Source: a virus
Taxonomy: Duplodnaviria > Caudoviricetes
Length of the DNA: 50,593 nt
Virus record (IMG/VR): IMGVR_UViG_3300046374_000030
Span: 1-50,593 of that record
Strand: one strand, 5' to 3'
Shown here: in pieces, positions 20,820 through 27,870 of the stretch
How positions within the stretch are numbered: position 1 is the stretch's first letter
How the letters are laid out: each line of letters starts with the position of its first letter
Notes under the pieces: model-generated
What the model saw: only the letters and a program-made list of their open reading frames with translations
The model's database searches: none
What the model was told of the DNA's origin: nothing
Position numbers and translations under genes: made by a program

Positions 20820-21071
20820 GCGCGATGGTCGGGGTGATCGCCGGCCTGGTGATCCTGTACTTCCTGGTGGCCGCGCTGCAGAAAAGCGGGCGGCTGCGAT
20901 GACCGAACCCTGTGCTGGCTCGATGACGTTCCCCACCAACTACGACGGCGAAACCACCGTCTGCCCGCGGTGCGGGCGAAGGCTGCGGCTGCACGTCAAC
21001 GGCAAACTTCCCAAGCACAACCGCGAACCGCGCCGCCCCGTCCACCTCGAGCGCGGCACCAGGATCATCGC

Positions 21072-21251
21072 GTGAACGAGGCGCAGCACCGCGCTTCGAT
21101 CAAGGTGGCCGAGGCGCGAAACTGTGTGCACCGCCTCGCATCTGATCTCAGCGAGGCCGAACGCAGGCTCAAACGCGCCGAAGCCAGATTGCGGCGAGAG
21201 ATCCGACTGGACCCCGACGCCTACGCGCAGATTACGGCGGTGAGCGGATGA
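21072..21251 (+). CDS. Small coiled-coil hypothetical protein
   Basis: GTG start after AGGA, heptad-like sequence. Confidence 0.5.
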   Translation: MNEAQHRASIKVAEARNCVHRLASDLSEAERRLKRAEARLRREIRLDPDAYAQITAVSG

Positions 21252-21252
21252 G

Positions 21253-21283
21253 GGTGTCCACCAACGGACACCGCCGCTACACT
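21253..21283 (+). promoter_or_regulatory. Promoter of tRNA block 1 with overlapping GGTGTCC-N6-GGACACC operator
   Basis: Palindrome 21253-21272; -10 TACACT 21278-21283, followed 7 nt later by GTG at 21291 (leaderless geometry). Confidence 0.6.
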
Positions 21284-21290
21284 GTGTGAC

Positions 21291-21344
21291 GTGCACGCCC
21301 GCCGATTACTGCGATCACGTTCCTCCTTGCGACTTAGTCGCTAA
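21291..21344 (+). CDS. Leader peptide 1 (MHARRLLRSRSSLRLSR) for the Ser/Leu tRNA block
   Basis: Leu codons TTA, CTG, TTG, CTT and Ser codons TCA, TCC, TCC, AGT; stops 3 nt before tRNA-Ser. Confidence 0.7.
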   Translation: MHARRLLRSRSSLRLSR

Positions 21345-21347
21345 CCA

Positions 21348-21430
21348 GGAGGGTGATCCCGGCCGGGCTGGGGCTTCTCTGCTAAGGAATGCGCGGCATT
21401 GTCCGTGGTGTCCGACTCACCCGCCCTCCG
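21348..21430 (+). tRNA. tRNA-Ser(GCT)
   Basis: Acceptor GGAGGGT/GCCCTCC, loop CT-GCT-AA, long variable arm, atypical T loop. Confidence 0.75.
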
Positions 21431-21434
21431 CTGA

Positions 21435-21521
21435 GGAAGATGAAGCAGTGGCGAGTGCCGCGACCGGCGTCGAATACCGGGTCCGCTTAACCGCGGTGGG
21501 GATCAAGACCTCCGTCTTCCA
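21435..21521 (+). tRNA. tRNA-Ser(CGA), atypical
   Basis: Acceptor GGAAGAT/GTCTTCC, loop GT-CGA-AT, long variable arm, T loop ATCAAGA. Confidence 0.65.
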
Positions 21522-21525
21522 CGAA

Positions 21526-21599
21526 GCCGTCGTAGCCCAACCGGCAGAGGCACTGGTCCCAGAAGCCAGACAGTGCGGGTTCGAATCCCGCGGGCGGCA
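21526..21599 (+). tRNA. tRNA-Leu(CAG)
   Basis: CTGGT-CC-CAG-AA-GCCAG, GGTTCGAATCC, short variable loop. Confidence 0.85.
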
Positions 21600-21600
21600 C

Positions 21601-21674
21601 GCTCCCGTAGTCCAACCGGCAGAGGCAGCGGCATGAGGTGCCGTCCAGTGTGCGTTCGAATCGCACCGGGAGTA
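21601..21674 (+). tRNA. tRNA-Leu(GAG)
   Basis: GCGGC-AT-GAG-GT-GCCGT, TTCGAAT T loop. Confidence 0.85.
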
Positions 21675-21675
21675 C

Positions 21676-21749
21676 GCACCCTTAGCCCAAACGGGAGAGG
21701 CATCCGGCTCAAACCCGGTCCAGTCTCGGTTCGAATCCGAGAGGGTGTA
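21676..21749 (+). tRNA. tRNA-Leu(CAA)
   Basis: CCGG-CT-CAA-AC-CCGG, GGTTCGAATCC. Confidence 0.85.
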
Positions 21750-21750
21750 C

Positions 21751-21823
21751 GCGCTCCTAGCCCAACGGGAGAGGCAGCCGGTTTAAGCCCGGTCCAGTCT
21801 CGGTTCAAATCCGAGGGGGCGCA
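21751..21823 (+). tRNA. tRNA-Leu(TAA)
   Basis: GCCGG-TT-TAA-GC-CCGGT, GGTTCAAATCC. Confidence 0.85.
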
Positions 21824-22218
21824 CCCACCGTCATCTTGTAGGTGCGGATCGCGTCGCTGGAGGCGCGCATCATCAGCACCGCCTCATCGCGGCTGACCGC
21901 CGACCGGTTGCCGCCGACCTGCAACCAGAACTTGTCGGGGATCTGCGGGTGAATCCACACCCGCCAGCGCAGCTCCGGATGGTCAATCGAATGCATCGCG
22001 GCCAGCCAGCGTAACCGCTCCAACGGCGACGCACCCTCGGGGCAGGGCGGCTGGACGGTCGGCCCGTACGCCGGGTCGTCGGGATGAACCCACCGCAGCT
22101 GCGGCGGCTCATACTCGGCCAGCGCCGCGAAGAACGCCTGGTCGTCGCGCCGCGACTGACCCCACCGCTCGTCATCCGGCGCAACGGTCTCCCACTTCAG
22201 GCCCTGCGGTTGTGTCAT
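21805..22218 (-). CDS. Hypothetical protein inserted antisense within the tRNA array
   Basis: ATG at 22218 (MTQPQGLKWE...), 137 aa; stop lies antisense to the T arm of tRNA-Leu(TAA). Confidence 0.6.
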   Translation of the reverse strand: MTQPQGLKWETVAPDDERWGQSRRDDQAFFAALAEYEPPQLRWVHPDDPAYGPTVQPPCPEGASPLERLRWLAAMHSIDHPELRWRVWIHPQIPDKFWLQVGGNRSAVSRDEAVLMMRASSDAIRTYKMTVGAPPRI

Positions 22219-22222
22219 GCGT

Positions 22223-22423
22223 TTAGGCGACGCTGATGGAGCTGGCGGTGGTGGTGACGTTGCTTTCCCAGTGGTCTCCGCTGGTGACGCCTGAGACGCT
22301 TTTGAGCCAGTTGTGCAGTTGCAGCACGGTGCAGGGTGTGGTGAGTGCGGGGTGAGTGACGGGCCGGTGGGCCAGTTGTTCGGCGCTGGCTTTTTCTTCG
22401 GGCATGGGGTCATCATCGCCCAC
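22223..22423 (-). CDS. Small hypothetical protein in the same insert
   Basis: 66-aa ORF ending 4 nt before the next ATG. Confidence 0.5.
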   Translation of the reverse strand: MGDDDPMPEEKASAEQLAHRPVTHPALTTPCTVLQLHNWLKSVSGVTSGDHWESNVTTTASSISVA

Positions 22424-22498
22424 GGTGGATGTTGTGGGGTTGCGGCGCGCCGTGTCCTAGACGATGCAGCGTTCCACCCGGCGGCTCAGCAAACCCGA

Positions 22499-22527
22499 CA
22501 GTCTCGGTTCAAATCCGAGGGGCGCAC
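22499..22527 (+). repeat. Copy of the tRNA-Leu(TAA) 3' half (att-like direct repeat or tRNA remnant)
   Basis: CAGTCTCGGTTCAAATCCGAGGGGCGCAC matches 21795-21824 except for one missing G. Confidence 0.8.
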
Positions 22528-22542
22528 GCTACAATGACCACC

Positions 22543-22578
22543 ATGTTCTTCGCCCCACGACCGTATCCCTGGCGCTAG
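22543..22578 (+). CDS. Leader peptide 2 (MFFAPRPYPWR) for the Pro/Trp/Tyr tRNA block
   Basis: -10 TACAAT at 22530-22535, ATG 7 nt later; codons CCA, CCG, CCC, TAT, TGG. Confidence 0.7.
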   Translation: MFFAPRPYPWR

Positions 22579-22611
22579 CCGCCCGGTCGTGACAACACGC
22601 CCGGGATCAAA

Positions 22612-22685
22612 CCGGGTGTAGGCCAACTTGGTAGGCCACCTGCTTTGGGAGCAGGAGACTGGGCGTTCGAATCGCTCCTCCCGGA
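22612..22685 (+). tRNA. tRNA-Pro(TGG)
   Basis: CCTGC-TT-TGG-GA-GCAGG, GTTCGAATC. Confidence 0.85.
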
Positions 22686-22689
22686 CGAA

Positions 22690-22761
22690 GGGGACTTCGC
22701 CAAGTGGGAAGGCAGCGGCTTCCAAACCCGCCACGACTGGGTTCGATTCCTAGAGTCCTCG
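22690..22761 (+). tRNA. tRNA-Trp(CCA)
   Basis: GCGGC-TT-CCA-AA-CCCGC, GGTTCGATTCC, G73. Confidence 0.8.
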
Positions 22762-22762
22762 C

Positions 22763-22843
22763 GCCGGCACATCCCATGTGGTGAGGGAAGCAGACTGTAA
22801 ATCTGTGGCTTCGGCTGTGTAGGTTCGACCCCTGCTGCCGGTA
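22763..22843 (+). tRNA. tRNA-Tyr(GTA)
   Basis: GCAGA-CT-GTA-AA-TCTGT, variable arm GGCTTCGGCT. Confidence 0.85.
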
Positions 22844-23032
22844 CGATCAGCGCAGCAGAGATGGGCGCCTGCCACGCGGCCCGGCTACGATTCCTGGGCT
22901 TCACCGTGATCCCTCGTCGGGGAGATGCCCACCCGGTACGATCAACGAGCAGAGATGGGCGCCTGCCATTGAAAGCCAGCCGGGTAACCGTGACGTGGTC
23001 GTAGGTGATCCCCCAGCGGGGAGACGCCCGCC
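22838..23032 (+). repeat. Tandem duplicated promoter/leader unit, each copy starting ATG-GGC-GCC-TGC-CAY
   Basis: Two units of about 95 bp: CCGGTACGATCA..AGCAGAGATGGGCGCCTGCCA...GTGATCCC..GGGGAGA(T/C)GCCC. Confidence 0.8.
22955..22972 (+). CDS. Leader peptide 3 (MGACH) for the Cys/His/Gly/Ala tRNAs
   Basis: ATG GGC GCC TGC CAT TGA downstream of TACGAT (22937-22942). Confidence 0.6.
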   Translation: MGACH

Positions 23033-23085
23033 TACGAAAAATGGGTGGACCGAACGCGGGCCAACCGTTTACCGTGGTACACAGT

Positions 23086-23156
23086 GCGCTGGTGACCGAG
23101 TGGTCAGGTGGCAGGCTGCAAACCTGTTCAGGCTGGTTCGATTCCAGTCCGGCGCT
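23086..23156 (+). tRNA. tRNA-Cys(GCA)
   Basis: GCAGG-CT-GCA-AA-CCTGT, U73. Confidence 0.9.
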
Positions 23157-23157
23157 C

Positions 23158-23235
23158 GGTAGTCGTAGCTCAATGCGGCAGAGCGCCGGGATGTGGCCCC
23201 GGAGGTTGAGGGTTCGGACCCCTTCGATTACCCCA
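23158..23235 (+). tRNA. tRNA-His(GTG)
   Basis: CCGGG-AT-GTG-GC-CCCGG, G-1/C73, encoded CCA. Confidence 0.9.
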
Positions 23236-23306
23236 GCGGGTGTGGCGTAGTGGCCGCGCACCAGACTTCCAATCTGGCAACGCAGGTTCGATTCCTGTCA
23301 TCCGCT
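23236..23306 (+). tRNA. tRNA-Gly(TCC)
   Basis: CCAGA-CT-TCC-AA-TCTGG, U73. Confidence 0.9.
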
Positions 23307-23385
23307 CGACATCGCCCTCGTGGTCGCCAGAGGAGTAAGGCTGGTCAATCCGCGTAAAGCCGAGGCGAAGCTAATATCGGCACCT

Positions 23386-23458
23386 GGGGTTGTAGCTCAG
23401 CTGGTAGAGCGCCTGCCTTGCAAGCAGGAGGCCCGGGGTTCGATTCCCCGCTGCTCCA
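23386..23458 (+). tRNA. tRNA-Ala(TGC)
   Basis: CCTGC-CT-TGC-AA-GCAGG, G3:U70. Confidence 0.92.
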
Positions 23459-23459
23459 C

Positions 23460-23532
23460 GCCTTGATAGCTCAGTTGGTAGAGCGCCCGCCTGAAGAGTG
23501 GGAGGCCCGAGGTTCGATCCCTCGTCCTGGCA
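23460..23532 (+). tRNA. tRNA-Phe(GAA)
   Basis: CCCGC-CT-GAA-GA-GTGGG. Confidence 0.9.
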
Positions 23533-23536
23533 CTTG

Positions 23537-23608
23537 GCCCTGCTAGCTCAATGGGAGAGCGTCCGTTTCACACGCGGAAGGCACGAGGATCGTAACCTCG
23601 GTGGGGCA
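23537..23608 (+). tRNA. tRNA-Val(CAC)
   Basis: TCCGT-TT-CAC-AC-GCGGA, T loop ATCGTAA. Confidence 0.85.
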
Positions 23609-23609
23609 C

Positions 23610-23681
23610 GTCCTGTTAGCTCAGCGGCAGAGCGCCGGCACGACACGCCGGAGGCCCGAAGTTCGATCCTTCGACGGGACA
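23610..23681 (+). tRNA. tRNA-Val(GAC)
   Basis: CCGGC-AC-GAC-AC-GCCGG (C33). Confidence 0.85.
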
Positions 23682-23682
23682 C

Positions 23683-23751
23683 ATGATGCGAACGCGAACC
23701 GATCAGGGGCGGCGAAAGCCGACACGTCGCCCTGATTCCGCGCGTCCGTAG
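23683..23751 (+). CDS. Leader peptide 4 (MMRTRTDQGRRKPTRRPDSARP) for the Lys/Thr/Gly/Asp tRNAs
   Basis: ATG 1 nt after tRNA-Val; codons ACG, ACC, ACA, AAG, GAT x2, GGG; stop inside tRNA-Lys (nt 8-10). Confidence 0.6.
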   Translation: MMRTRTDQGRRKPTRRPDSARP

Positions 23752-23817
23752 CTCAGTCGGTAGAGCTGTTGCCTCTTAAGCATCAGGTCGAAGGTTCGAT
23801 CCCTTCCGGGCGCACCA
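23742..23817 (+). tRNA. tRNA-Lys(CTT)
   Basis: Loop CT-CTT-AA, encoded CCA. Confidence 0.9.
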
Positions 23818-23818
23818 G

Positions 23819-23893
23819 GCCGTTGTCGCACACGTTGGCTTGTGCACCTGCCTTGTAAGCAGACTTACGCGGGTTCGATTCCTGTCAGCGGCT
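23819..23893 (+). tRNA. tRNA-Thr(TGT)
   Basis: CTGC-CT-TGT-AA-GCAG, GGTTCGATTCC. Confidence 0.85.
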
Positions 23894-23941
23894 CGTTATG
23901 ATAAGCGCATCAGCGAAGCGCACCACGAAGGAAAGGCGATC

Positions 23942-24163
23942 ATGTCGCAGGAACAAGAGCAGGAAACGGCCAGCGCCGAGCAGCGACTGGAAGCCGACCC
24001 GGCGCTGGAGCCCGAGCTGGCGCACGAGCGCGACGAAGGTGCGGCCGAAGCAGCCGAAACCGCAGCCGAGGACGCGGCGTACTCCGGTTCCGGTGCGCTG
24101 TCGGCGTCCGCGGTCGCGGGCGCGGACGACGAAGCCGCGGACGAGGCCGCTGAGGACGCGTAG
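23942..24163 (+). CDS. Small highly acidic, Ala/Glu-rich protein
   Basis: GAAGGAAAGG RBS; MSQEQEQETA...DEAADEAAEDA, 73 aa. Confidence 0.7.
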   Translation: MSQEQEQETASAEQRLEADPALEPELAHERDEGAAEAAETAAEDAAYSGSGALSASAVAGADDEAADEAAEDA

Positions 24164-24193
24164 CTTGTCAGACCGTCGCCTTAAAGTTCGGGT

Positions 24194-24553
24194 GTGGCAA
24201 TCAGCCAAGCCAAAAAGACGCAGCAAGCCCGCTGGAGAAATGAGAACCGCACGTTCCTACGTCAGATCAATCGCAAACGACGCCTAGCGATCAAAGGTGA
24301 AGCTCTCGATCACTATGGATGGGAATGTGCGGAGTGCGGATTCGACAACCCAATGGCTCTCGTCATAGATCACGTCGATGACAACGGTGCGGATGAGCGG
24401 AGGGATTTAGGCGGGCGGCATTATGCGGGCTGGAACTTCTACAGCTACCTGAAGCGCCTCGGCTGGCCGGAGGGATATCAGACGCTTTGCGCGAACTGTA
24501 ACATGATCAAACAGCAGCTCAGGCTGCAAGGCACCTGTGGTCTAGCGGTATGA
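24194..24553 (+). CDS. HNH endonuclease
   Basis: CAECG...LVIDHVDDNG...YQTLCANCN; stop overlaps tRNA-Gly(GCC). Confidence 0.85.
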   Translation: MAISQAKKTQQARWRNENRTFLRQINRKRRLAIKGEALDHYGWECAECGFDNPMALVIDHVDDNGADERRDLGGRHYAGWNFYSYLKRLGWPEGYQTLCANCNMIKQQLRLQGTCGLAV

Positions 24554-24602
24554 CACCTGCTTGCCATGCAGGAGATCGCGGGTTCGATTCCCGTCGGGTG
24601 CT
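24531..24602 (+). tRNA. tRNA-Gly(GCC)
   Basis: CCTGC-TT-GCC-AT-GCAGG, U73. Confidence 0.9.
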
Positions 24603-24603
24603 C

Positions 24604-24616
24604 GTTGTTTGATAAC
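24604..24616 (+). promoter_or_regulatory. BoxA-like antitermination element
   Basis: GTTGTTTGATAAC resembles the mycobacterial rrn BoxA (GTTGTTTGAGAAC) and sits in an AT-rich tRNA spacer. Confidence 0.5.
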
Positions 24617-24629
24617 AACTAAACATCAT

Positions 24630-24701
24630 GGCTCTGTAGCTCAGTGGTAGAGCGCCGGCCCGTCAAGCCGGAGGTCGAGGGATCGTTCCCCTTCAGGGTC
24701 G
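24630..24701 (+). tRNA. tRNA-Asp(GTC)
   Basis: CCGGC-CC-GTC-AA-GCCGG (C33), G73, T loop ATCGTTC. Confidence 0.85.
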
Positions 24702-24702
24702 C

Positions 24703-24750
24703 ATGTTGATACGGGCGCGACGAATTAGGCAGCGGCGACAAAGCCGCTGA
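24703..24750 (+). CDS. Leader peptide 5 (MLIRARRIRQRRQSR) for the Ile/Arg/Arg/Arg/Gln tRNAs
   Basis: ATG 1 nt after tRNA-Asp; 11 of 14 codons after the start are Ile, Arg or Gln. Confidence 0.7.
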   Translation: MLIRARRIRQRRQSR

Positions 24751-24759
24751 TTTCGTCAT

Positions 24760-24831
24760 GCCCGTCTAGCTCACCGGTAGAGCACCGATCTGATAAGTCG
24801 TAGGCACCAGGTTCAATTCCTGGGTCGGGCA
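24760..24831 (+). tRNA. tRNA-Ile(GAT)
   Basis: CGAT-CT-GAT-AA-GTCG, GGTTCAATTCC. Confidence 0.85.
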
Positions 24832-24832
24832 C

Positions 24833-24907
24833 GCCTTCATAGCTCAGTCTGGACAGAGCACCGGTCTACGGAGCCGGGTGTCGCAGGTTCGAATCCTGCT
24901 GGGGGCA
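24833..24907 (+). tRNA. tRNA-Arg(ACG)
   Basis: CCGGT-CT-ACG-GA-GCCGG. Confidence 0.9.
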
Positions 24908-24908
24908 C

Positions 24909-25005
24909 GCCGCTGTGGCTGAACGGATAAGCGCCCGCCTCCTAAGCGGGTTAGGCAACCGGCTTCTACCCGGTGAATATGCAGGTTCGAATCCTGTCAG
25001 CGGCA
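24909..25005 (+). tRNA. tRNA-Arg(CCT) with a 30-nt variable region
   Basis: CCCGC-CT-CCT-AA-GCGGG; variable region 24951-24980. Confidence 0.8.
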
Positions 25006-25008
25006 CAA

Positions 25009-25079
25009 GCCTTCGCCAGCGGATCTGGCCCTGAGTTTCCGAAGCTCGGCGTGCGGTGGTTCGACTCCACTCGGGGGCA
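25009..25079 (+). tRNA. tRNA-Arg(CCG), atypical D arm
   Basis: CTGAGT-TT-CCG-AA-GCTCGG, GGTTCGACTCC; no U8/N9 linker. Confidence 0.7.
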
Positions 25080-25083
25080 CTGG

Positions 25084-25156
25084 TGAGCCGTTGGGTAACT
25101 GGCATCCCGCCGCGCTTTGGTCGCGGATATTGCACGTTCGAATCGTGCCGGCTCAG
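25084..25156 (+). tRNA. tRNA-Gln(TTG)
   Basis: U1:A72, CCGCG-CT-TTG-GT-CGCGG, G73. Confidence 0.85.
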
Positions 25157-25167
25157 CTATGCTGCTT

Positions 25168-25189
25168 GGGTGTCCATTCGCGGACACCC
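25168..25189. promoter_or_regulatory. Palindromic operator-like site GGGTGTCC-N6-GGACACCC
   Basis: Same half-sites and 6-nt spacer as the sites at 11642, 21253 and 37147. Confidence 0.55.
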
Positions 25190-25210
25190 CGAGCACGGAA
25201 GGAGCCTGAG

Positions 25211-25270
25211 ATGCGACAGCACAAACCGGAGCCTGAACGCATGAATCAGGCGTCCGTAGCTCAGCGGTAG
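25211..25270 (+). CDS. Leader peptide 6 (MRQHKPEPERMNQASVAQR) for the Lys/Glu/Glu/Asn/Gln/Met tRNAs
   Basis: RBS GGAAGGAG at 25197-25204; codons AAA, GAG, GAA, ATG, AAT, CAG; runs into tRNA-Lys. Confidence 0.7.
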   Translation: MRQHKPEPERMNQASVAQR

Positions 25271-25321
25271 AGCTGTTGCCTTTTAAGCATCAGGTCGGGG
25301 GTTCGATCCCCTCCGGGCGCA
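25250..25321 (+). tRNA. tRNA-Lys(TTT)
   Basis: Loop CT-TTT-AA; near-identical to tRNA-Lys(CTT). Confidence 0.9.
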
Positions 25322-25325
25322 CGCT

Positions 25326-25397
25326 GGTCCCATGAGGTAGCGGCTAGCCTGCGAGATTTTCACTCTCGTCGTTCGGGTTCGATTCCCGGTGGGACTG
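25326..25397 (+). tRNA. tRNA-Glu(TTC)
   Basis: CGAGA-TT-TTC-AC-TCTCG. Confidence 0.88.
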
Positions 25398-25412
25398 CGG
25401 AGGCGCGTTGTG

Positions 25413-25523
25413 ATGAAACGGCTCAAAGCTTTGCTGCGGCCGCACCTGTATTCGCTTTGGCGATGGACGTGGGCCGAGGACGAAGACGACGACGAAGACG
25501 ACGACGAAGCTGGATTGGTGTAA
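25413..25523 (+). CDS. 36-aa peptide with an acidic run between the two tRNA-Glu genes
   Basis: GGAGG RBS; MKRLKALLRPHLYSLWRWTWAEDEDDDEDDDEAGLV; stop inside tRNA-Glu(CTC). Confidence 0.5.
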   Translation: MKRLKALLRPHLYSLWRWTWAEDEDDDEDDDEAGLV

Positions 25524-25580
25524 CCGGGAGCACAGCGGATTCTCAGTCCGCCAGCGCGGGTTCGAGCCCCGTATCCAGTG
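25509..25580 (+). tRNA. tRNA-Glu(CTC)
   Basis: GCGGA-TT-CTC-AG-TCCGC. Confidence 0.88.
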
Positions 25581-25584
25581 CTGA

Positions 25585-25657
25585 TGGTCTGTAGCACAAC
25601 CGGCAGTGCGCTCGGCTGTTAACCGAGTGGTTGAAGGTTCGAATCCTTCCAGGCCAG
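25585..25657 (+). tRNA. tRNA-Asn(GTT)
   Basis: CTCGG-CT-GTT-AA-CCGAG, G73. Confidence 0.92.
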
Positions 25658-25661
25658 CGAA

Positions 25662-25733
25662 TGAGGTGTGGTCCAACCGGCACGACTCTGGGTTCTGGTC
25701 CCGGCAATCTAGGTTCAAATCCTGGCACCTCAG
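25662..25733 (+). tRNA. tRNA-Gln(CTG)
   Basis: U1:A72, CTGGG-TT-CTG-GT-CCCGG. Confidence 0.88.
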
Positions 25734-25737
25734 CGGA

Positions 25738-25813
25738 TGCAGGGTAGGGAAGTCTGGTCTATCCCTGCGGCCTCATAAGCCGTAAATCGCGGGTTCGAAT
25801 CCCGCCCCTGCAA
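25738..25813 (+). tRNA. tRNA-Met(CAT), initiator versus elongator uncertain
   Basis: GCGGC-CT-CAT-AA-GCCGT; fMet-like T arm, but paired U1:A72 and no full GGG/CCC run. Confidence 0.85.
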
Positions 25814-25817
25814 CGAG

Positions 25818-26065: not shown

Positions 26066-26275
26066 GTGCGCGGGTTGTTGTGCGACGCGCTTGCTGCTGT
26101 CTTGAGGGCGCTGACCGCGCCGCTGAGGAAAGTCATCAGCGACGCGATCGCCGACGCCCGTGACCGCGCCACCCGCGAGGACATCGCCGCCGCGCTGGTG
26201 TCGGCGACGTGGACCGCCAAGGATGACGAGGCGTTCGACCAAGCGTTCGGCGAATATTTGCAGGAGCCGGAGTGA
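26066..26275 (+). CDS. Small hypothetical protein
   Basis: GTGA overlap with the TerL start. Confidence 0.5.
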   Translation: MRGLLCDALAAVLRALTAPLRKVISDAIADARDRATREDIAAALVSATWTAKDDEAFDQAFGEYLQEPE

Positions 26276-27870
26276 GCGCCGTCCTTGAGGCCGATCCCGA
26301 GGTCGGCTCCACGCTGCCACGGCTGTTCACCCCGCCGCTGCCCGAGCACGTCGACCCCGACGCCGAATGGGGCATCAAACCCGAAGCCACCTGGGGTCCG
26401 CTGTGCTGCGACTTTTTGGAACGCATCCTGAAATGGAAGCTGCTGCCCTGGCAGAAGTGGCTGTACTACCGGGCGCTGGAAAAGCGTAGGAACGGAACAG
26501 GTTTCAGGTTCCGCTACCTGATCGTGCTGGTGGCGCGGCAGAACGGGAAGACGAAGTGGGGGATGGGGCTGGGGCTGTGGCGGCTGTTCATGGACAAGCA
26601 CGGCCGCGCCGACCCGGATTGGCCGGCGGCCAAGCTCGCCGTCGTGGCGGCGCAGAACTTGGATTACGCCGAGACCACCCTCAAGGAAGTCGTCGACGAG
26701 ATCCGCGACCAGCCGCTGCTGGCGCCGGAACTGTTGAACCACAAGGTGACCAACGGCAAGCACCGCGCGATCCTGTCGTATCGGCGGCTGTGGCGCGCCG
26801 CGACAGCGAACAAGAAGGGGGCGCGGTCGCTGTCGGTGGATTTCGCGTGGCTCGACGAGCTGCGCACCCACACCACCCCGGACGCCTGGAACGCTGTCAC
26901 CCCGACCACCAACGTCCGCATCTGCGCGCAGGTGCTCGCCACCTCCAACGCCGGGGAAAACACCAGCGTCAAACTCAAGGAGCTGCGCCAGGCCGCGGTC
27001 CGCAAGATCACCGTCGGCGACACCGCCGACACGCAGACCGGGTTCTTCGAATGGAGCGTGCCCGACGAGGTGGACCCGCGCGACGACTCCTACTGGTATC
27101 TGGCGAATCCCGCGCTGGGGCTGCTCAACGAGTTCTGCCTGGACGATCTGCGGGCGCATTTCGAGACGATGGAAGCCGACGATATGCCCGGCTTCCGCAC
27201 CGAGTATCTGTGCCAGTGGGTGGACGCGCTCAAGCCCGGCATCCTGCCCGCGCAGGCGTGGGCCGACACCATCGACAAGGAATCGAAGCGGGCCGAGAAC
27301 TCGCCGGTGTACGCCTGCATCGAGTACAACTACCACCGCACCCGCGCCTACGTCGGGATCGCCGCCCGGCGCGCTGACGGCAAGACCCACATCGAAGTCC
27401 TCAAAACCCCGGCCAAGGGCGTCGACTGGCTCCCCGAATGGCTGCGCCCACGCAAAGAAAAGTTCGCCGGCATCTGCATCCAAAAGACCGGCGCGCCGGC
27501 TTCGGGGCTGGCTGACGATCTGCGGGCCCAGGGCTTCACGATCATCGACTGGGGCTCCCCGGTGGCGCAGCTCGCCGCCGGCGCCGGCGACTTCTACGAC
27601 GGGCTGGTCAACGGCACCATCAAACACCGGCCCGCCTTGGTGCTGGACAAGGCCGCCGCGTCCACCCCGGCCCGCACCATCGGCGACGCCTGGTTTTTCG
27701 ACCGCCGCCACTCCCCGGTGGACGCGTCCCCGGTAATCGCGGTCTGCGGCGCGGCGTGGCTGCTGAACAACCCGCCGCCACCGGTCGGCCCGGCGACGGT
27801 GTGGGAATGGCCCGACGACGACACCCTCGACGAATGGCGGAAGGAAGCCGATGACCGATTCAACGAGTAA
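26272..27870 (+). CDS. terL: Terminase large subunit
   Basis: LLPWQ, Walker A VARQNGKT, Walker B FAWLDELR, TSNAG, FFEWS, ANPALG, C-terminal nuclease (VDA). Confidence 0.95.
   Translation: MSAVLEADPEVGSTLPRLFTPPLPEHVDPDAEWGIKPEATWGPLCCDFLERILKWKLLPWQKWLYYRALEKRRNGTGFRFRYLIVLVARQNGKTKWGMGLGLWRLFMDKHGRADPDWPAAKLAVVAAQNLDYAETTLKEVVDEIRDQPLLAPELLNHKVTNGKHRAILSYRRLWRAATANKKGARSLSVDFAWLDELRTHTTPDAWNAVTPTTNVRICAQVLATSNAGENTSVKLKELRQAAVRKITVGDTADTQTGFFEWSVPDEVDPRDDSYWYLANPALGLLNEFCLDDLRAHFETMEADDMPGFRTEYLCQWVDALKPGILPAQAWADTIDKESKRAENSPVYACIEYNYHRTRAYVGIAARRADGKTHIEVLKTPAKGVDWLPEWLRPRKEKFAGICIQKTGAPASGLADDLRAQGFTIIDWGSPVAQLAAGAGDFYDGLVNGTIKHRPALVLDKAAASTPARTIGDAWFFDRRHSPVDASPVIAVCGAAWLLNNPPPPVGPATVWEWPDDDTLDEWRKEADDRFNE

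Follow-up and report, generated by a model that had tools for sequence, protein, structure and literature searches.

The window (the whole 50,593-nucleotide stretch analyzed here) comes from an uncultured virus record and has a G+C content of about 66%. Its terminase large subunit is about 50% identical to the terminases of mycobacteriophage Typha and of M. abscessus prophages, and portal, head, and tape-measure genes lie 3' of the terminase gene; because of this likeness and gene content, the host is probably mycobacterial. A tRNA array of about 4.5 kb spans positions 21348–25814. ARAGORN found 28 tRNA genes in it at the default threshold, and a relaxed threshold added Ser(GCT), Ser(CGA), and Arg(CCG). 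The array is of the kind known as the mycobacterial tRNA array unit, which comprises at least 20 dense tRNA genes and often an HNH endonuclease. Six tRNA genes make up its first block, in the order tRNA-Ser(GCT), tRNA-Ser(CGA), and four tRNA-Leu genes. The features of the locus are collected in Table 1.

Table 1. Positions of the leaders, tRNA genes, and neighboring features in the window
Feature	Position	Strand	Remark
-10 hexamer of leader 1, TACACT	21278..21283	+	predicted SigA-type promoter; 7 nt 5' of the start codon
Leader 1, predicted leaderless 17-codon ORF	21291..21344	+	Ser x4, Leu x4, Arg x6 (CGA x3)
Anti-tRNA strand within leader 1	21313..21327	+	predicted to pair with 21347-21358
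Inner hairpin across the last codons of leader 1	21329..21341	+	relatives keep a hairpin here; stems differ
tRNA-Ser(GCT), non-canonical	21348..21431	+	relaxed scan; nt 1-11 form the strand predicted to be masked
tRNA-Ser(CGA)	21435..21522	+	relaxed scan
Four tRNA-Leu genes	21526..21825	+	anticodons CAG, GAG, CAA, TAA
-10 hexamer of leader 2, TACAAT	22530..22535	+	
Leader 2, predicted leaderless 11-codon ORF MFFAPRPYPWR	22543..22578	+	Pro x3, Tyr, Trp
Predicted alternative helices of leader 2	22582..22620	+	codons with 22582-91; 22594-605 with the 5' strand of tRNA-Pro; switching model-dependent
tRNA-Pro(TGG), tRNA-Trp(CCA), tRNA-Tyr(GTA)	22612..22844	+	head of the second block
Remaining tRNA array	23086..25814	+	includes the HNH endonuclease ORF
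HNH endonuclease ORF	24194-24553		inside the tRNA array
Terminase large subunit	26272..27870	+	context gene

Several features of the array stand apart from the leaders. All four tRNA-Leu are 75 nt long with a short variable arm; bacterial tRNA-Leu usually has a long arm. The 3' half of tRNA-Leu(TAA) is duplicated at 22487–22527, upstream of leader 2, and the original and the copy flank a minus-strand ORF of 203 amino acids (21805–22416) without a Pfam or PHROG match, an arrangement that suggests an insertion into the array. Two imperfect direct repeats carrying tRNA-like pieces lie past tRNA-Tyr (22840–22970) and are possibly decayed tRNA genes. Where relatives have Arg(TCT), the window has a tRNA-like gene of 98 nt whose anticodon is unassigned (24909–25006, Rfam 57.5 bits); it may hold a small intron or insertion. 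The array also includes a very acidic 73-amino-acid ORF without a family match (23943–24163) and a run of Asp/Glu codons immediately 5' of tRNA-Glu(CTC) (25477–25510).

Overlooked tRNA-Ser genes in the array and its relatives

Both tRNA-Ser genes of the window were missed by default ARAGORN and by Rfam and appeared only at the relaxed threshold; tRNA-Ser(GCT) by itself is predicted to fold as a cloverleaf. Further non-canonical tRNA-Ser genes were located in related records (L001 943–1118, L143 957, L142 961, and L163 5136–5311), and such genes (GCT and CGA in the window type; in cluster C, CGA and in some cases GGA) are also absent from the GenBank annotation. For Bonray, Bxz1, Phabba, G001, G002, and G003, the relaxed scan predicted a Ser(CGA) gene, and for Bonray and G003 it predicted Ser(GGA) as well. 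These predictions conflict with a passage of PMC10264068 stating that cluster C1 phages avoid Ser(CGA) and Ser(GGA). The scan thereby brings to light tRNA-Ser(CGA) genes of cluster C that standard annotation overlooks.

A putative leaderless ORF precedes the first tRNA block

Leader 1 (MHARRLLRSRSSLRLSR) runs from a GTG at 21291 to a TAA stop ending at 21344, 3 nt 5' of tRNA-Ser(GCT), and a 7-nt spacer (21284–90) separates the start codon from the hexamer TACACT. The first-pass annotation had placed a GTG 7 nt past TACACT, and its positions for this segment are correct base for base. Only four sites in the whole window, on both strands, show the pattern TANNNT-N7-RTG (nine expected by chance), and leaders 1 and 2 are two of them. 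A minus-strand ORF overlying the promoter of leader 1 (20940–21296) was judged spurious. No T-box or other cis-element of Rfam was found in the window, where only tRNAs matched at the gathering score, and comparison of 21200–21620 with Rfam at E ≤ 10 gave nothing meaningful.

Leader ORFs are conserved across three phage lineages

In nine genomes, which represent only about three independent lineages, all 19 tRNAs that stand first in a cluster are preceded by a short ORF with TANNNT 6–7 nt 5' of an RTG start; the same was seen for 7 of 265 other tRNAs. Four of these seven are Pro-block leaders and the other three precede Lys(TTT). This census left out a false tRNA call at window position 22451, and its ranges were trimmed in L004 and L153, where false calls lie just upstream of the leader. 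A G stands two bases 5' of the hexamer in 19/19 leaders and TG in 13/19, which we take to resemble an extended -10 element.

The three lineages in which the leader ORFs are conserved, as read from their sequences, are the family of the window, cluster C, and the distant singleton phage Sparky. In the first, the IMG/VR type L003 has the Ser/Leu leader MRDHRLLSSSPFRLS, and L004 has the same leader with Leu for Phe; both also carry a Pro leader. Cluster C mycobacteriophages have three tRNA clusters, with a leader at each head examined: the leader 5' of Ser, Ser, and three Leu tRNAs is MFARLSLSSSLRLS in Bonray, Bxz1, and ScoobyDoobyDoo and differs by one residue in Phabba, G001, and G002; the one 5' of Pro, Trp, and Tyr has a Pro/Trp/Tyr core; and the one 5' of Gln(CTG) and Asn is MRTSSQQNRQQ or a variant ending in NRQQ. 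The first block of Sparky comprises only Ser(GCT) and Ser(CGA) and follows the leader MLIPGRRSSSTSR, and its Pro leader is MTSARRRPWPWRYTAEG. In all the relatives' records fetched, the leader ORFs are unannotated.

Between cluster C pairs, the Ser/Leu ORF is 96–98% identical, compared with 50–55% for upstream DNA, 29–43% for the spacer, and 77–88% for tRNA-Ser; between the window and L003, the ORF is 70% and the upstream DNA 81% identical. Silent and coding positions are equally conserved. In L361 (3066–2994, minus strand), the Pro/Trp/Tyr leader has a Shine-Dalgarno site and its hexamer is shifted upstream by about 30 nt. In Roots515, the Pro leader has had its 5' part replaced, with a hexamer, the start, and the frame kept. 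In wastewater contigs, the match to the cluster C leader begins one base 5' of the ATG, and their different upstream DNA still places TATCTT 7 nt before it; these matches come from two runs of one study, four runs of which gave only short contigs that show neither start nor strand, and do not speak to expression. For the cluster C stretch, no RNA data set was listed. The gain of a Shine-Dalgarno site in L361 and the upstream replacements in Roots515 and the wastewater contigs may be read as signs of translation. In L370 (2860–2700, minus strand), the tail of a Sparky-type Ser leader ends a long upstream frame and has no leaderless start.

No leader precedes the first tRNA in the stretches examined of MrMagoo (cluster M), Wildcat (cluster V), and plasmid pCBMA213_1, and no similar leader was found on the plasmids examined, among which a match on an M. 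avium plasmid has a single tRNA in the stretch examined. Among bacterial genomes, a terminase search found no relative, and the leader pattern gave 16 matches, none of them mycobacterial by title and none with a tRNA in the four checked. Among at least 119 metagenome matches, one was an array with leaders, identical to L004. The short-arm Leu pattern occurs at at least 121 loci, many of them arrays; among loci above 55% G+C, only cluster C-like ones have a matching leader. Five of 49 matches to the Gln-leader pattern adjoin tRNAs, and all five are cluster C-like; a Gln/Asn leader-plus-tRNA query was at least 80% covered in 202 phage-collection records, only a few of which were inspected directly. 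Four candidate ORFs in Streptomyces phage SparkleGoddess show no clear codon match.

Short hexamer-led ORFs also lie 5' of tRNA-Lys(TTT) (L145 11162–11203; L341 7865–7894, minus-oriented; window 25158–25244). Those of Bonray and G002 contain an AAA codon and are possibly a fourth leader type; the one in the window has no Lys codon and may be due to chance.

Leader codons match the tRNAs downstream

Eight of the 16 codons after the start of leader 1 specify Ser or Leu, compared with a background of 12.6% (P = 3e-4); its other two frames contain one and four such codons. The first-pass annotation had paired the four Leu codons, TTA (21306), CTG (21309), TTG (21327), and CTT (21333), one to one with the downstream anticodons TAA, CAG, CAA, and GAG, and had called TTA very rare in a high-GC genome. 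Both statements hold for the window, where TTA accounts for 3 of 7082 codons in 12 genes. In a post hoc test, the probability of one each of TTA, CTG, TTG, and CTY is 0.002 with the codon usage of the genome and 0.037 if all codons are used uniformly. As a rule for the family, the strict map was rejected, since Leu codons and tRNAs are mismatched in the relatives: L003 and L004 retain CTT without a Leu(GAG) tRNA; the leaders of Bonray, Phabba, and G002 contain CTA without a Leu(TAG) tRNA; and of the four genomes with Leu(TAA), the window and L004 have a TTA codon and L003 and G002 have none. Across the six Ser/Leu leaders, the conserved trait is the sampling of different Leu codons, not an exact map: none repeats a Leu codon, and CTG, TTG, and CTT are present in all six.

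The Ser codons of leader 1 are TCA, TCC, TCC, and AGT. TCG is lacking, as the first-pass annotation had cautioned; we regard this as minor, TCG being present in the cluster C and Sparky leaders. As TCA TCC TCC is the reverse complement of the start of tRNA-Ser, some of the agreement in Ser codons may simply be a by-product of the pairing described below.

In all 19 leaders, every cognate amino acid of the block head is present. Trp and Tyr occur in 9/9 Pro/Trp/Tyr leaders and in 0/10 others, and Gln and Asn make up 33–50% of the Gln/Asn leaders. In the Ser/Leu and Gln/Asn leaders, the match of cognate codons is confined to the frame of the ORF; for the longer Pro leaders, the enrichment is not significant individually. 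The leader of Sparky, whose first block has no Leu tRNA, contains four Ser and a lone Leu at codon 2, the run of Leu having been lost. Rare codons are favored, and CGA occurs in frame in 19/19 leaders: it accounts for 18 of 32 Arg codons in 10 representative leaders, compared with 5% in the window genes. CGA may be a general pause codon.

Leader 1 is predicted to mask the start of tRNA-Ser

In the predicted fold, GATCAC (21313–18) pairs with 21353–58 and CCTCCT (21322–27) pairs with 21347–52, giving 12 pairs with a 3-nt bulge. These pairs and the inner hairpin are the ones by which leader 1 was originally proposed to mask nt 1–11 of tRNA-Ser. The probability of this masking is 0.91, compared with a mean of 0.25 for shuffled sequences, and none of 50 shuffles reached 0.91. 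For the seven Ser-headed leaders, 0, 1, 2, 0, 8, 0, and 1 of 50 shuffles reached the observed masking, so that six of the seven beat their shuffles (0–2 of 50), the exception being Phabba. The corresponding counts are 9, 11, and 43 of 50 for the Gln leaders and 3–50 of 50 for the Pro-block leaders, of which those of Phabba and G001 are unmasked. When the leaders were folded as nascent RNA, just 2 of 19 beat 95% of shuffles, and all 19 were more stable than shuffles (z from -1.2 to -5.6).

A translating ribosome was modeled by forcing the bases from 12 nt 5' to 14 nt 3' of the P-site base to be unpaired; tRNA tertiary structure and folding kinetics lie outside these models. The native acceptor stem of tRNA-Ser in the window scored 0.0 without a ribosome or with the A site on codons 2–5, and rose to 0.7 with the A site on TTA/CTG (codons 6–7), where the Leu/Ser codons begin, and to 0.9–1.0 on codons 8–16. 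At the last sense codon and the stop, where the footprint overlies the start of the tRNA, it returned to 0.0. The minimum-energy folds sampled from codon 6 to codon 15 contained the full cloverleaf. Folding with and without a footprint, the check proposed in the first-pass annotation, thus gives a masked tRNA in the free RNA and a cloverleaf with a ribosome on codons 6–16. Of the original reading of leader 1, a putative leaderless and probably translated ORF, the match between its codons and the downstream tRNAs, and the predicted masking of the tRNA-Ser acceptor strand are supported, with conservation in three lineages and the footprint folding in their favor; the exact Leu map is not supported as a rule.

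The relatives vary in this model. In Bonray and Phabba, the native stem scored 0.6–0.9 inside the leader and 0.0–0.1 at the last codon and the stop, and a spacer hairpin is predicted to give a trp-like pattern. For L003, L004, and Sparky, the tRNA is released with the ribosome at nearly every codon, and several Pro leaders show no unmasking. For leader 1, the folding models contain a duplex between the ORF and an element 3' of it that can be broken by stalling of a ribosome; in several Pro and Gln leaders, this duplex is weak or absent. On visual inspection, L003 and Sparky have an anti-tRNA strand that changes along with the tRNA start. In a cross-pairing matrix, the leaders of the window and of cluster C preferred their own type of tRNA, and those of L003 and L004 did not.

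For leader 2, the switch was seen in the ensemble and not in minimum-energy folds. The Pro leaders of Phabba (L146 713–881) and G001 (L339 364–532) are longer and Thr-rich and are followed by a cascade of alternative hairpins of 91–94 nt. Since tRNA-Pro is not masked in their free fold, their wiring may differ.

An intrinsic terminator, consisting of a hairpin and a U-tract, was ruled out: none of the 19 leaders has a U-tract after any hairpin (longest T run 2–4), and there is no terminator-like site at leaders 1 and 2 of the window.

Discussion

For leader 1, a promoter-like hexamer, an ORF, and a match between its codons and the tRNAs, all with their conservation, can be read directly in the DNA; the masking and unmasking of the tRNA-Ser acceptor strand are predicted by folding. 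Taken together, they make it probable that leader 1 is a ribosome-sensed attenuator of the phage tRNA operon whose switch is the acceptor strand of the first tRNA itself. In this mechanism, the Ser and Leu codons of the leader would report the supply of working Ser and Leu tRNA. With no ribosome, or with a ribosome on codons 2–5, the leader would pair with nt 1–11 of tRNA-Ser; with the A site on codons 6–16, the cloverleaf would form; and a ribosome at the last sense codon or at the stop would itself cover the tRNA start. When tRNA is plentiful, the ribosome would run off, and the masked fold would cause the transcript to be cut short or wasted. When charged Ser or Leu tRNA falls, through starvation or host tRNA-cleaving toxins, the ribosome would pause, the tRNA would fold, and the block would be made, a feedback loop in which tRNA genes are controlled by tRNA supply.

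As there is no U-tract terminator, the output, like the regulatory direction, is one that we infer. Our first choice would be Rho termination when the first tRNA is misfolded, which is favored because the effect must reach the Leu genes 180–480 nt downstream; the second would be blocked RNase P processing followed by decay. The Ser-headed leaders contain more C than G. Passages of 10.1101/2022.06.01.494293 describe Rho as dominating leader termination in M. tuberculosis, with conditional termination linked to translated uORFs, which makes this a plausible output for a leader without a terminator; the abstract and outline of that work do not mention phage or tRNA operons.

Translation could also act without sensing anything. 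The leader may be a constitutive licence or timer, in which any ribosome unzips the hairpin or shields the transcript from Rho and the dwell time depends on slow codons (CGA, TTA, and CTA). Every leader, regardless of cluster, has CGA in frame, and rare codons are favored; in the models of L003, L004, and Sparky, the position of the ribosome hardly matters; and translation suppresses Rho in M. tuberculosis, according to passages of 10.1101/2022.06.01.494293. This explanation is nevertheless rather unlikely, for it leaves unexplained the amino acids that track the cluster (Trp/Tyr in 9/9 versus 0/10, Gln/Asn, and the loss of the Leu run in Sparky), and the CAG of the Gln leaders is a common codon.

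We consider it quite unlikely that the leader acts as RNA only, as a structured 5' leader for stability or processing that is an inverted copy of the tRNA start, with an incidental ORF arising because mycobacterial transcripts often start at RTG. The coincidence of the Ser codons with the anti-tRNA strand and the near-complete nucleotide conservation, silent sites included, would suit such an RNA constraint, and one or two changes would be enough for many start sites to initiate translation, as stated in part of Canestrari et al. (10.1101/834739). Against it, codons for Leu, Trp, Tyr, Gln, and Asn are matched in frame (and, for the Ser/Leu and Gln/Asn leaders, not in other frames), L361 gained a Shine-Dalgarno site, the frame outlasts 5' replacement and length changes, and the tRNA is disrupted, not helped, by the predicted fold. 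That the peptide itself acts, arresting the ribosome in its tunnel or serving in trans as a small protein, is very improbable: there are short conserved endings (RLS or RLSR in 6/7 Ser-headed leaders, NRQQ in 3/3 Gln leaders), but three unrelated peptide types stand at the three clusters, and silent positions are conserved like coding ones.

The attenuator that we favor has relatives among known systems. The leaders of trpL, thrL, and ilvGMEDA are multivalent leader-peptide transcription attenuators. Leader 1 shares with them a short ORF, cognate codons of several amino acids, and a ribosome position that picks the helices (trp-like in the Bonray and Phabba models). It differs in lacking an intrinsic U-tract terminator, in being followed only by tRNA genes and not by biosynthesis or synthetase genes, in its predicted leaderless start, and in having the tRNA as its last helix strand. 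Closer in host, passages of Canestrari et al. (10.1101/834739) describe mycobacterial leaderless sORF attenuators that form a polycysteine 'ribulon'. The likeness extends to cognate codons as (here putative) sensors of charged tRNA, the probable host genus, and a stalled ribosome that breaks an RNA duplex hiding a downstream element (in silico here); it would also include a leaderless short ORF at the front of the transcript, for which the 19 leaders show TANNNT 6–7 nt 5' of the start. In those attenuators, the hidden element is the Shine-Dalgarno sequence of a protein gene and the codons form a homopolymer, whereas leader 1 would hide nt 1–11 of tRNA-Ser, its codons are mixed across several amino acids and isoacceptors, and the regulated genes would be phage tRNA genes.

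For arrays of this kind, PMC5966550, PMC12803027, and PMC10264068 treat, in the passages concerned, the same type of array and, for cluster C, the same phage group; these passages describe no regulation, and the word 'promoter' is absent from the main texts of PMC5966550 and PMC12803027. The word 'leader' is absent from the main texts of these three and of PMC10865867 and PMC8421152, and 'attenuat' from that of PMC8421152. Passages of the latter concern the Anabaena trn L-array, likewise an accessory tRNA operon induced under translational stress, for which control through a DNA-binding repressor at the promoter is proposed. Literature searches of mostly non-subscription papers for T-boxes, attenuation, or leader peptides in connection with phage tRNAs or tRNA operons gave no paper relevant by title, and nothing on Bxz1 transcripts was among the papers listed. 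What is new here is the design, a terminator-free leader predicted to mask a tRNA, present in cultured M. smegmatis phages; it is a variant of ribosome-mediated attenuation.

The wider idea is tentative and, in our view, rather doubtful: phage tRNA operons might regulate themselves through a ribosome track made of their own codons, with the acceptor strand of the first tRNA as a terminator-free switch, and would thus release replacement tRNAs once host tRNAs for these codons run low or are cut, as an inducible counter-defense against tRNA-targeting immunity, in three versions (Ser/Leu, Pro/Trp/Tyr, and Gln/Asn) per phage genome. In passages of PMC10264068, cluster C1 tRNAs are proposed to replace host tRNAs cut by anticodon nucleases, and the leader codons TCA and TCC (window) and TCG (cluster C) are read by Ser tRNAs listed there as anticodon-cleaved.

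Judged by their sequences, the tRNA blocks headed by Ser, Pro, or Gln here and in Bxz1 and Sparky open with a tiny, unannotated ORF whose codons match the block, and this element is present in cultured phages of M. smegmatis. The leader likely serves to make spare tRNAs available to the phage when the matching codons cause ribosomes to stall. The purpose of phage tRNA arrays has been open for decades; the main ideas, as given in passages of PMC10264068, are codon compensation and escape from host tRNA nucleases, and they are silent on control. A leader that reads codons would name the tRNA shortages that the phage is built to detect, and these ideas would thereby become testable.
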